64,000 nucleotides of DNA, from positions 1,440,001-1,504,000 of the forward strand of contig OY761556.1 in assembly GCA_963664705.1 (NCBI GenBank). Reading direction: 5' to 3'. The notes below the pieces were generated by a model. It made no database searches. It was given only the letters and a program-made list of their open reading frames with translations, and was not told the origin of the DNA. This DNA is from Acidobacteriota bacterium. GTDB taxonomy: Bacteria; Acidobacteriota; UBA6911. This document shows positions 17,688 through 32,399 of the stretch, piece after piece. The translations under genes were made by a program, and so were the position numbers. The stretch's first letter is position 1; each line of letters opens with the position of its first letter.

Positions 17688-18780
17688 TCCGCGCTTCCGG
17701 GGTTCCGGGCAAATAATGTGCGACATTGGGCGTCTTGCCGACAAGGGCGTGGACGCTTCCATCGCGCCGATGTCGACGGGATGGCCAATGCCACATATTG
17801 ATTGTTCTAATCGCTGTGACGCGAGGGAAGCAACCGGCCCGGCGCCCGAAAGAACGTAGCCGGGGCTGATGCCTTGCGATTGTGCTTTAGCTCTTCGGTC
17901 TGGGTCTGATTCGCGGTTCCGGCTTCCTCGGATAAATAATGTGTGACATTGGGCGTCTGGCCGGCAAGGGCGTGGACGCTTCCATCGCGCCGATGTCGAC
18001 GGGATGAGCAATGCTGCATATTAATTGTTCTAAGCGCTGTGATGCGAGGGAAGCAACCGGCGCGGAGGGCCCGAAAGAACGTAGCCGGGGCTAGGCTTTC
18101 GTGATGCCTTGCGATTGTGCATTAGCTCTTCGGTCTGGGTCTGATCCTCGGTTCCGGCTTCCTCAGATAAATAATGTGCGACATTGGGCGTCTGGCCGGC
18201 AAGGGCGTGGACGCTTCCATAGCGCCGGTGTCGACGGGATGGCCAATGCCACATATTATTTGCTCTAAGCGCTGTGACGCGAGGGAAACAACAGGCCCGG
18301 AGGGCCCAAAAGAACGTAGCCGGGGGTGAAGCGAACCCCCGGCATAGATAAGCGGGAGAAAGAGCCCCGGCTAGGGGCGAAAGATCAGCATTCTGCCGCC
18401 CCGCTGGGGCTTGTTACATGCCTAATCCAATCCGGGGGTTCGCTTCGCTTCACCCCCGGCTACGTTCTGACCGCCCCTGCCGGGGCTGATGCCTTGCGAT
18501 TGTGCATTAGCTTTTCGGTCTGGGTCTGATTCGCGGTTCCGGCTTCCTCGGGCAAATAATGTGTGACATTGGGCGTCTGGCCGACAAGGGCGTGGACGCT
18601 TCCATCGTGCCGATGTCGACGGGATGGCCAATGCCACATATTATTTGCTCCAAGCGCTGTGACGCGAGGGAAGCAACCAGCCCGGAGGGCCCGAAAGAAC
18701 GTAGCCGGGGGTGAAGCGAAGCGAACCCCCGGTATAGATAAGCGGGAGAAAGAGCCCCGGCTAGGGGCGAAAGATCAGCA
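17682..18780. repeat. Composite tandem array of four ~223-385-bp units containing REP elements (BIME-like)
   Basis: Unit marker AAATAATGTG at 17711, 17934, 18169 and 18554. Full REPs at 18316-18342 (+), 18432-18463 (-) and 18701-18732 (+); truncated REPs at 17856 and 18081. Confidence 0.9.
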
Positions 18781-27872: not shown

Positions 27873-28202
27873 CTACCGGCGTAGCTGCTTTTGACGCCAG
27901 AGATCGTTCCCCCCGGCGCGGCCATCCTGCAGACGATCATACAGGCTCGGATATTTTGCCTGAAAGCTCTTCTCGTTCAGGTTTTCGTCCAGCAGCTTTC
28001 CTTCCGAATTCTTGACCGTGTAGACCGTTCCCTTCTCCCCTTTGCTGATCGTGACAACCTTGTCCCGCATCTTAAGGTGTCCCAGAACCACTCCGCCAGT
28101 CGTGGAAATCTGAGTCCCTTTTTCCTCGGCAAAAGGATTTGTGATCACGATGAAAGTAAGGCAGACAGCCACAATACAGGAACAGATAAGTACTTTTTTC
28201 AT
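27873..28202 (-). CDS. Small exported hypothetical protein
   Basis: MKKVLIC… hydrophobic N-terminus, GGGGG RBS; the longer ORF extension is repeat-derived. Confidence 0.7.
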   Translation of the reverse strand: MKKVLICSCIVAVCLTFIVITNPFAEEKGTQISTTGGVVLGHLKMRDKVVTISKGEKGTVYTVKNSEGKLLDENLNEKSFQAKYPSLYDRLQDGRAGGNDLWRQKQLRR

Positions 28203-28250
28203 GAAGCACCCCCCTGCTGAAGCTATTATCCCGCGAATCGATCCCGCCGG

Positions 28251-28687
28251 CAACGTCCAACGTCCCAACGTCCAACGTCCAACGTCCCAACGTCCAACGT
28301 CCAACGTCCCAACGTCCCAACGTCCCAACGTCCCAACGTCCAACGTCCCAACGTCCAACGTCCCAACGTCCAACGTCCAACGTCCCAACGTCCAACGTCC
28401 AACGTCCCAACGTCCCAACGTCCAACGTCCCAACGTCCAACGTCCAACGTCCAACGTCCCAACGTCCCAACGTCCAACGTTTCAACGTCCAACGTCCAAC
28501 GTCCCAACGTCCAACGTCTCAACGTCCCAACGTCTCAACGTCTCAACGTCCAACGTCCCAACGTCCCAACGTCCAACGTCCCAACGTCCAACGTCCAACG
28601 TCCCAACGTCCAACGTCCCAACGTCCAACGTCTCAACGTCCAACGTCCAACGTCCAACGTCCAACGTCCCACGTTTCATCGTCCAAC
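28251..28687. repeat. Long AACGTCC/AACGTCCC tandem array (~435 bp)
   Basis: Nearly pure 7/8-nt units. Confidence 0.95.
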
Positions 28688-29569
28688 CGAAACCAGGTAC
28701 CAGAATGCCGTGGTGCCGAGGGAGATCAACGTTCCGACGCTGACCATCAGGTTTGCGAGCCGCGGATTGAGTTTGTACTCCGATGCCAGGATGGCGGACG
28801 TGATCATCGGAGCCATCGCCGCTTCCAGAATGCTGGCCCGCGCCGGGAATCCTCGCACGCCGAAGACGAGCGCAGCGCCGAACACCAGTGCCGGCGCGAT
28901 CAGCAGTTTATAGGCCAGACCGGCCGACAGGCACTTTACCTCGCGTTTCCATTCCGAAAAGTGAATCTGGAGCCCGACGGAAAAGAGTGCCAGGGGCACA
29001 AGCGTGTTTCCCAGGCGCGTCAGCAGTGGGACCACAGGATCGAGGCTGACAAATCGCGGGAGGATGAGCGCCAGCGCAAAGGCCGCAAAAGGCGGGAATC
29101 TCACCAGGGTTTTCAAAACACCTTTTTGTGCGGTGCTGTGTGACGCCCGCAGGGCGGTCATGACGCCAAAAGCCGAGAGGACGATGAAGTTGACCTGGTC
29201 GCAGATCACGGCAATGCGAAGCCCTTCGTGTCCCAGGTAGGCTTCCGTGAGCGGGAAGCCGATAAAAGACGTGTTTCCGAGTCCCGCGGTCAGGAGCAGG
29301 GCGGCCTGGGTCTGTTTGTCCGGCGAAATTCTGTTGCCGAAAAACTTCAGTGCGGTCCAGGCGACCAGCCAGAGCCCCACCGGCATGGCGGCCGGAAGGA
29401 TCAGCGACGTGCTCCACTCGATTGCGGGGATATACAGCAGCGACATGGAGGGCAGCGCAATATACAGAATCCACGCATTGATGCCTTTGTGCGCGTTTTC
29501 GGGAAGCGTTCCGGTTGAGCGCAGAATCAGGCCCGCCACAAGACAAACCGCTATCAGAACAAAATTCAT
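28676..29569 (-). CDS. AEC (auxin efflux carrier/malate permease) family transporter
   Basis: About 10 TM helices, GNTSFIGFP, PLALFSVG, EAAMAP. Confidence 0.85.
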   Translation of the reverse strand: MNFVLIAVCLVAGLILRSTGTLPENAHKGINAWILYIALPSMSLLYIPAIEWSTSLILPAAMPVGLWLVAWTALKFFGNRISPDKQTQAALLLTAGLGNTSFIGFPLTEAYLGHEGLRIAVICDQVNFIVLSAFGVMTALRASHSTAQKGVLKTLVRFPPFAAFALALILPRFVSLDPVVPLLTRLGNTLVPLALFSVGLQIHFSEWKREVKCLSAGLAYKLLIAPALVFGAALVFGVRGFPARASILEAAMAPMITSAILASEYKLNPRLANLMVSVGTLISLGTTAFWYLVSVGR

Positions 29570-30265: not shown

Positions 30266-30268
30266 AGA

Positions 30269-30321
30269 AAATTACGAATTACGATTGACGAATGACGAAT
30301 TGTGAGAAGCGCGCGGATCTC
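30269..30321. repeat. ACGAAT(T/G) heptamer array plus unique tail, directly repeated at 32333-32399
   Basis: …GACGAATTGTG(A/G)GAAG(C/G)GCGCGGATCTC shared by both copies. Confidence 0.8.
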
Positions 30322-30515
30322 ATTGGTCGGGCCTCTGCAATTTATCCGCATTTCTGGAATAACCCAAACCGATAAAATCAACGCAAGCAAAGCGCCGGAG
30401 GCGCGGCAGATAGTAGACATAATGGAGTGATCGGTCTCTAGCATGTAATATCGTGGGTTACAGCTGAAGTCGTGGTGACAAAGCTGCAGAGCCATAAAAC
30501 ATGAGGAGACCGATC

Positions 30516-31610
30516 ATGGCAGATTGTATCACTTGGGTAGGGATGGATGATTCAGCAAAAAAGATAAACGTCGCAGTTTTTCGCGGGCAGGAAAGTAACC
30601 CACGAGAAGAACTTGTTGTATCAAACGACAGTACGGGGCTGGGGCGATTAGCGAAAAAGCTAAGGGCATTTGAAGATGATGTACGGTGCGTCTACGAAGC
30701 GGGCGTTAATGGATACTATTTGCAGCGCTATTTGGCCAAACATGGGATTTCTTGTGAGGTTGCGGCCCCTTCGTTGACCCCGAGACGAGCGGGGAAAAAA
30801 GTAAAAACGGATAAGCTGGATGCGAAAGCCCTGGGCAAATTGTACCGAGCGGGAGAACTAACATGTATTGTGATCCCGCAAAAAGAACAGGAAAGTCTGC
30901 GAGATCTAGTGCGCGCGCGAGAAGACGCATTGGAAGACCAGCAGCGAGCACGGCATCGATTAGCACGGTTTCTGATGCGACGTGGATTGAAATATCCGCA
31001 GGGCAAGAACTGGTCGCTTGGGCACCTAAAATGGATTAAGAGCCTTGTGTTTGAGGATGATGGGGATCAAACAGTACTGGAGGAATATCGACAGGCGCTT
31101 GAGCAACAGACGGAGCGGTTGAAAAAATTCCAGGAAAAAATCGAGGAAGTTGCAAAACAGCCGAACTATCAAAAGCGAGTCAGCTATTTGATGGCGCTAA
31201 AAGGTGTTCAGGTTCTGACGGCGATGACGATTATCGCAGAAGCGCTCGATTTAAGACGGTTCGTTGATGCGCCTTCGTTTATGGCCGCTATTGGGGTGGT
31301 GCCTTCGGAAAGCAGCTCAGGTGAACTTGAAAGACGGGGAAGGATAACCAAAACGGGAAACAGCCACCTACGTAGGGTGCTGATCGAAAGCGCCTGGCAC
31401 TACCGTCATTCTTCAGTAGCTGGCAAAACTCTCAAGAAACGACGAGAGTGTTTGCCGGCAGAAGTTATCGAGATTGCACAACGTTGCGATAAGCGATTGA
31501 ATCAAAAATTCCGACGCATGCTCAACCGAGGGAAAGAAAGACAAAAGATCGCGGTTGCGGTAAGTCGAGAATTGGCAGGATTTATCTGGGCTATCGGTCG
31601 TGTTGCATGA
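30516..31610 (+). CDS. IS110-family transposase/recombinase
   Basis: DEDD domain WVGMD…YEAG…KTDKLDA; C-terminal GVVPSESSSG and ITKTGNSHLRRVLIESAW; GAGGAG RBS. Confidence 0.95.
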   Translation: MADCITWVGMDDSAKKINVAVFRGQESNPREELVVSNDSTGLGRLAKKLRAFEDDVRCVYEAGVNGYYLQRYLAKHGISCEVAAPSLTPRRAGKKVKTDKLDAKALGKLYRAGELTCIVIPQKEQESLRDLVRAREDALEDQQRARHRLARFLMRRGLKYPQGKNWSLGHLKWIKSLVFEDDGDQTVLEEYRQALEQQTERLKKFQEKIEEVAKQPNYQKRVSYLMALKGVQVLTAMTIIAEALDLRRFVDAPSFMAAIGVVPSESSSGELERRGRITKTGNSHLRRVLIESAWHYRHSSVAGKTLKKRRECLPAEVIEIAQRCDKRLNQKFRRMLNRGKERQKIAVAVSRELAGFIWAIGRVA

Positions 31611-31682
31611 CATAAGGCACCAGCTCTTGCAGCTATTTTGTTCTTCAATGGATTAATAACGGAAACATTCGGTTAGTGAACG

Positions 31683-31866
31683 GAACAGGAGATCGAGTTC
31701 CAGGCTTCGAAAGGAGAAACCTCGACCTGGCTATGTTGGTATGGGAAACCAGAATCCACGGAAGTAGAGTGAGGCCGCTCCCGATGAATCAGTTGTCATG
31801 CGTGCTTATCGACCCGCGAATATCAGATTGATTATCGTCGCTGTTGCCAACTCGATCCCCTGTTCT
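31683..31866 (+). ncRNA. Predicted bridge/seekRNA of the IS1111-type element
   Basis: Closing stem GAACAGG-AGATCGAGTT / AACTCGATC-CCCTGTTC. Loop 1 carries CCTGGCTA and AGTAG (target); loop 2 carries TGTC and ATATCAGA (donor junction). Boundaries approximate. Confidence 0.75.
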
Positions 31867-31958
31867 TTTTACTGGCTGATTTATTTATGAACCGAAGAAA
31901 ACCAAAATGAACGAACAAGGAACGGATTGATTGTACTTGACCGATCACTCCATATCAG

Positions 31959-32191
31959 CCAGGGGTGAGCGTAGCGAACCCCTGGACTAGGATCAGGAAT
32001 AATGGAGCCCCGGCAGGGGCGAAAGAAATGTTCACACAAAAAAGGGTTGAGACCACGCGACTAAATTTGATGAAAGGTATTTTTGATAATCGCTTTCTTT
32101 CGCCCCTGCCGGGGCTGGTTCATCCTGTGGTCGACAACCAGGGGTTCGCTGCGCTCACCCCTGGCTACTCGCTGCCGGGCCTCCGGCCCTT
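31959..32191. repeat. Inverted REP doublet (left copy interrupted by the IS; right copy 32138-32168 intact)
   Basis: CCAGGGGTGAGCG(T/C)AGCGAACCCCTGG on both strands with AGCCCCGGCAGGGGCGAAAGAAA inverted arms. Confidence 0.88.
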
Positions 32192-32332: not shown

Positions 32333-32399
32333 AAATTACGAATTACAAATTACGAATTACGAATTACGAATGACGAATTGTGGGAAGGGCGCGGATCTC
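32333..32399. repeat. ACGAAT(T/G) heptamer array overlapping gene 3' end
   Basis: About 6 units; encodes the last ~10 codons (HNSSFVIRNS) of the minus-strand gene. Confidence 0.85.

Follow-up and report, generated by a model that had tools for sequence, protein, structure and literature searches.

IS621 and ISCro4 use a two-loop RNA with four guides, a CT/AG core, handshake bases, a REP target and a CA mismatch in the long donor guide. ISEc11, ISPa11 and ISKpn4 have a non-coding region on the downstream side of the gene, subterminal repeats whose end extensions measure 7 and 3 bases, a junction promoter and an RNA in which the complement of the top strand comes first, and ISPa11 also targets REPs (PMC11187229). 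One screen of orthologues was centred on the IS621-like clade (10.1101/2025.05.14.653916). The element described here is like both sets in the features listed, its RNA and junction promoter being predictions, and differs from the second in a longer recombinase (364 aa versus 330-350) and a clearly readable donor loop.

Concerning the recombinase, the nearest named proteins are those of ISSso6 (38% identity) and ISEc45 (36%). The ends of ISSso6 are built as in our element (AG, 5 bases, repeat; repeat, ATC, AG), and the RNA profile described below detects its tail with E 1e-24. A Leptospira element, which we take to be IS1533 (a name guessed from the host), likewise has the same ends and a tail that matches the profile (E 5e-20), and ISCARN28 shares protein motifs recognizable by eye. 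The target of this group (ISSso6, ISEc45, IS1533 and ISCARN28; ISfinder, IS110 family) differs from that of our element. A bridge RNA has been predicted for ISCARN28 (PMC11208160), and in our literature search no experimental test of an RNA of this group was found.

A preliminary description of the window (the whole stretch of 64,000 nucleotides that was analysed) had placed a non-coding RNA downstream of an open reading frame, in a 3' non-coding end. This placement was correct. At the sequence level, it was confirmed that 31683..31866 forms the non-coding 3' end of an IS1111-type element (IS110 family) of 1.54 kb, in the tail of the IS110-family recombinase gene at 30516-31610 (Table 1). The protein contains the Pfam domains PF01548 and PF02371, matches NF033542 with 209.7 bits (cut-off 140) and is less than 45% identical to any plasmid match. 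Its D11, E61, D99, D102 and S267 align with the catalytic residues of IS621, and it has the DEDD RuvC-like domain and the Tnp domain with catalytic serine that characterize the IS110 family.

Table 1. Features of the element and its target sites, in coordinates of the window.
Feature	Position	Strand	Evidence or remark
Left target half, AGT and AG core	30412..30416	+	Flank comparison, 11 copies
IS1111-type element, whole	30415..31958	+	1544 bp; AG cores 30415-30416 and 31957-31958; 11 copies with identical ends and length
Predicted -10 box CATAAT of circle-junction promoter	30418..30423	+	17 bases from TTGACC with ends joined over one AG
Left subterminal inverted repeat, 15 bp	30422..30436	+	7 bases in from left core start
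Structured leader: stem burying ribosome site and start codon, inner conserved helix	30427..30518	+	z = -6.2
DEDD recombinase, 364 aa (D11, E61, D99, D102, S267)	30516..31610	+	Pfam, NF033542, alignment to IS621
Predicted bridge RNA; closing stem 31683-31699 with 31849-31865	31683..31865	+	Two-sided changes in 15/17 pairs
Target-binding loop: outer stem 31720-31724/31770-31774, inner stem-hairpin 31734-31760	31720..31774	+	Covariation
Long target guide CCTGG-CT(A)	31726..31733	+	Complementary to + strand core and right target; five positions covary
Short target guide (A)AGT-AG	31762..31767	+	Same letters as left target and core
Target-loop handshake bases	31768..31769	+	31768 = first left-end base in 77/78 relatives
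Donor-binding loop: outer stems 31782-31790/31830-31840, inner stem 31799-31802/31815-31818	31782..31840	+	
Long donor guide TGT-CA	31794..31798	+	A faces core as mismatch, as in IS621; CA in 60/88
Short donor guide ATATC-AG	31820..31826	+	Same letters as right end and core
Donor-loop handshake bases	31827..31828	+	A31827 would pair with the element's own donor
Predicted -35 box TTGACC (31937-31942) overlapping right subterminal repeat (31939-31953)	31937..31953	+	
Right target half (CCAGG) at foot of occupied REP hairpin	31959..31985	+	
Empty partner REP with perfect 10-letter target	32138..32169	-	

The genome harbours 11 near-identical copies of the element, with recombinase identities of 98.9-100%. 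All 11 are 1544 bp long and bounded by both AG cores, and a single base varies among them in the region 3' of the gene. Insertion is site-specific and leaves the 2-base AG core in 11/11 copies with no longer target duplication, as is characteristic of the IS110 family. The element is clearly mobile. In one copy (L021, G000:C1:4951995-4953086) the recombinase gene is interrupted by an internal TAG stop, and at G000:C1:4126127 there is the scar of a twelfth insertion, in which about 92 bases of the left end are joined to a REP over a short shared word and the rest is deleted.

The IS1111 group is recognized by subterminal inverted repeats of 7-17 bp with an inset of 7 bases on the left and of 3 on the right, and by a long non-coding region downstream of the gene. 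Here AG and ACATA precede the left repeat and ATC follows the right one (7 and 3 bases in), the layout given for IS1111 elements (PMC11187229), and the non-coding flanks of the gene measure 99 bases on the left and 349 on the right. The order of the guides is also that of the IS1111 group, as the complement of the top strand (31726-31733) precedes the match to the bottom strand (31763-31767), and loop 2 has the same order.

The motifs of the proposed RNA were found where the preliminary description had put them, namely CCTGGCTA at 31726-31733, AGTAG at 31763-31767, TGTC at 31794-31797 and ATATCAGA at 31820-31827. By rough arithmetic, each 8-letter match has a chance of about 0.3-0.5% in 184 bases, and the 5- and 4-letter matches taken alone are near chance. 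We judged the guide matches to be real from covariation, and not from the single sequence. No Rfam family matched the guide RNA, and miRNA matches were far under the cut-off and located on the REP pair.

The region 31660-31900 folds with z = -4.0, and 0/200 shuffles were as good. A fold was derived from mutual information on 64 representatives, and pairs were then counted on 41 of these, the count omitting 23 more distant representatives, many with long inserts. In the 41 relatives 88.2% of cells were paired versus 78.6% when shuffled, and two-sided changes numbered 193 versus 65.8 (0/500). The structure was drawn partly from sequences on which it was scored, and a slid control is therefore biased. 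The supported architecture has a closing stem, followed by a junction helix and two internal loops, and in each loop an inner stem forms the closure. All four guides sit in loops rather than in paired stems, although the core-facing portions of the two target guides pair together in the single-sequence fold. The proposed closing stem of about 16 bp and the CCTC/GAGG stem were right. An inner TGGT/ACCA hairpin, on the other hand, gave way to 31734-31740/31754-31760 with TGG-GAAA-CCA, which is paired in 88.0% of cells versus 62.7% for the former. The stem of loop 2 exists in another register: 31782-31786 pairs with 31836-31840 (95.6%) and not with 31834-31837, and the pair 31785-31834 of the first register is broken in 31/41. 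Many close relatives (L117, L121-L123, L132-L134, L138, L155 and others) have an additional palindromic hairpin, about 110 bases long, between the stop codon and the guide RNA, which is absent in this element.

To examine guides and targets together, we collected 181 loci. Both ends were found in 113, and 68 failed, many on short contigs. The rule for the ends (left AG, 5 bases, repeat; repeat, 3 bases, A and any base) fixed the AG on the left and the first letter, A, of the core on the right, so that in the right core, which read AG in 109/113 loci, only the G was free. Leaving out 10 copies from the same genome, all 103 tails (103/103) fitted an RNA profile for which 51 close ones had served as input. 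Taking one locus per identical region gave 88 distinct relatives, 78 of which had enough flank for covariation. Guide columns were taken from a plain MAFFT alignment, unfitted to targets, and compared with 2000 permutations.

The long target guide agreed with R+1 to R+5 of the target in 69, 74, 70, 71 and 56 of 78 relatives (permutation means 34, 28, 21, 24 and 33), and the short target guide with L-1 to L-4 in 75, 69, 57 and 31 (means 39, 20, 22 and 18). Covariation was absent at R+6 (10 of 78, mean 13), R+7 (6 of 77, mean 6), L-5 (19 versus 19.5) and L-6. The pattern survived thinning to 57 and 31 elements. A31733 tracks L-1 (57 versus 44 expected by permutation), but guide base 31765 is complementary to it as well, and at this base pairing with DNA therefore cannot be distinguished from pairing within the RNA. 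As a way to blunt kinship, 39 disjoint nearest pairs with differing guides were chosen by a greedy procedure that used protein identity and no tree. The guides favoured their own target in 38, the partner's in 0 and neither in 1; by position, 143 favoured the own target versus 3, with 17 ties. The donor guides covary with the junction more weakly than the target guides do with the target. At the two variable positions of the right end the donor loop agreed in 76 and 72 of 78 (means 66.8 and 54.1), and at the first two bases of the left end in 67 and 64 (means 56.6 and 41.5). The third left-end base barely covaries (55/78 versus 52.2). Three positions of the short donor guide are invariant, hence uninformative, which leaves four informative donor positions. 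The check that the preliminary description had called for, covariation of guides and targets across homologues, thus came out in its favour, both loops changing in step with each element's target and donor. Its bispecific RNA, with one loop for the target and one for the donor, is supported by covariation and fold.

We therefore regard it as very probable that the segment is the end of an IS1111-type insertion sequence whose guides, matching and covarying with the target and the joined ends, belong to a two-loop bridge RNA that would steer the recombinase to the feet of REPs. Taking the directly observed ends, copies, targets, covariation and fold support together with what is described for IS621 and ISEc11, the following course can be proposed. 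The element would leave as a circle, its ends joined over one AG. The junction would form a sigma-70 promoter, TTGACC-17-CATAAT, and the transcript from it would supply both recombinase and RNA. Loop 1 would pair with both strands of AGT-AG-CCAGG and loop 2 with both strands of the junction, with strand exchange at the AG/CT core. Circle formation, promoter activity, the RNA and its binding by the protein, and the chemistry are carried over from the two described elements.

In the seekRNA model, only the target loop, as a processed RNA of about 70-100 nt, would guide, while the protein would mainly read the ends at the subterminal repeats and the donor loop would be secondary. Short seekRNAs sufficed for ISEc11 (PMC11187229), and the long donor guide here has just 4 letters with little variation. 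Against this, the donor-loop letters track both the right and the left end in the counts given above, the donor-loop handshake base tracks the target in every case in which it is not A (see below), and the donor-loop stems are 86-99% paired. Taking these into account, we consider the model improbable for this element. That the matches are chance or relics, the protein picking its target by reading the REP hairpin, is hardly credible: 10/11 copies lie at REP hairpins and a target stem-loop adds specificity for ISPpu10 (10.64898/2026.03.19.712850), but guide covariation has largely refuted this view already, the one copy at a non-REP site retains an 8-letter match, and the preference for hairpins (9/47 sites occupied versus 0/25 hairpin-free, p 0.02) vanishes once long-ORF sites are removed (9/47 versus 0/5, p = 0.57), so that selection can explain it. 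A target hairpin as a requirement, which we had considered separately, is likewise unsupported by the latter comparison.

The reading as a guided recombinase with an AG core aimed at REPs is thus the one that fold and covariation support, as far as sequences can. As regards the aim, a REP is not strictly required, one copy of 11 lying outside. The targets of the 11 copies are AGTAG-CCAGG (8), TGTAG-CCAGG (1), CGTAG-CCGGG (1) and, outside a REP, GATAG-CCAGG (1). The REPs of the window at 32138-32169, at 365-396 (likewise on the - strand) and at 18.3-18.7 kb, the last being CGTAGCCGGG REP-type sites at 18315, 18428 and 18700, read as the preliminary description had them. Its ranking of perfect over wobble targets fits the occupancy in the genome, where 9/47 REP sites of the CCAGG type and 1/76 of the CCGGG (wobble) type, picked by a simple hairpin rule, are occupied (Fisher p = 0.0007). 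REP targeting as such is not new, having been published for IS621 and ISPa11.

The eighth letter of ATATCAGA needs a separate account. The first seven letters stand as a donor guide, whereas the eighth, A31827, is a handshake base. In 21/21 elements in which 31827 is not A, it equals the first right base of the target. Handshake pairing of this type has been described for IS621, where the change G166A, the counterpart of A31827, sharply cut recombination (PMC11208158); G166A belongs to a set of changes favouring excision (PMC13626964). Our element has one Watson-Crick handshake pair before and one after exchange, a balance of 0 that does not favour the exchanged state, versus 1 and 3 in IS621 (PMC13626964). 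The balance is 0 in 32/35 relatives at ≥55% identity, with A at 31827 in 35/35, and positive in 33/43 distant relatives. The state in the 35 close kin may go back to one ancestral event. The donor-loop handshake base is in a state that in IS621 blocks insertion, and its effect in this element is inferred by analogy. With copy-out by donor-only recognition (10.64898/2026.08.31.748434), the balance could be of less importance. Rather tentatively, we can picture a REP-hunting subclade headed by this element, in which the donor loop retains the base that holds IS621 in the state preceding strand exchange. Insertion and excision as a circle would then be in balance, with no bias to insertion, while a weak donor guide offsets the neutral handshake and the conserved leader structure throttles the recombinase. 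If true, the element would break the handshake rule in nature and represent a naturally reversible bridge recombinase. As an exception to the rule proposed for insertion versus excision, the neutral handshake can be put to a direct test.

Concerning the predicted junction promoter, 58 of the 88 distinct relatives have a -35 box of ≥5/6 at 17 bases and 67 have a -10 box of ≥4/6. A linear promoter scan gave nothing above shuffles (2 versus 1.8), as expected if the promoter forms on the circle only. The end-to-end joint was not seen in contigs of 3 sequencing runs, and contigs drop rare forms. In the leader, the pairing partner of the ribosome site and the start codon is the left repeat, with its inner half. 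The leader folds at z < -2 in 86/88 relatives, its arms pair over at least 8 bases in 65/88 own versus 69/300 crossed combinations, and the inner helix occurs in the compensatory states TG/CA (54), CG/CG (11) and TA/TA (7). The structure likely serves translational control and possibly is a binding site of the recombinase. Pairing of the leader motif with the guide RNA was considered and rejected, as the two do not covary and the motif pairs inside the leader.

The AG core had been suspected to be new. It proved to be family-wide, is shared with ISSso6 and equals the CT of IS621 on the other strand. Read on the minus strand, the core of our element is CT and both loops have the long guide before the short one, as in IS621, and the core-facing letters CT/AG/CA/AG, found in 66, 88, 60 and 88 of 88 relatives, are the same in the IS621 RNA. 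On the other hand, the RNA here is downstream, the strand on which the target is read is, with respect to the gene, the opposite one, the repeats are long (15 bp), the long guides extend 5 and 3 letters beyond the core versus 7, and the recombinases are weakly alike (E 5e-7). Our literature search found no paper on this element; partly readable supplements and subscription papers could hold one. A short-motif search did not find its ends in the readable parts of the PMC11208160 supplements, and it may still be in that database. It is well supported that the element is a new member of the IS1111-type bridge/seekRNA elements. The surprise is modest because the mechanism class is already published. 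What the element offers is a fully read, naturally reprogrammed (predicted) bridge RNA whose branch is far removed from that of IS621. Covariation maps the ends, the core, the four guides and the handshake bases, and the RNA could go directly into a plasmid test. It is relevant to the point at issue between the bridge and seekRNA models, whether RNAs of the IS1111 type also guide the donor.

The hairpin next to the site of insertion gave a weak score with the Rfam family Acido-Lenti-1 (RF01687), which the target repeats at 30391-30416 and 32160-32190 resemble. Among 150/1448 candidates scored, at least 36 matches were found in the genome, at least 12 of them over the cut-off. Acido-Lenti-1 belongs here to the target repeat and not to the guide RNA, and instead of a small RNA it may represent a DNA repeat of the REP kind. 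This resemblance and a closest named homologue in an Acidobacteriota bacterium make that phylum the likely host. Short tandem repeats of the AATTACG type flank the REP pair at 30268-30302 and 32335-32380, and a long array of 7-8-base repeats at about 28200-28700 gives rise to spurious open reading frames on both strands.
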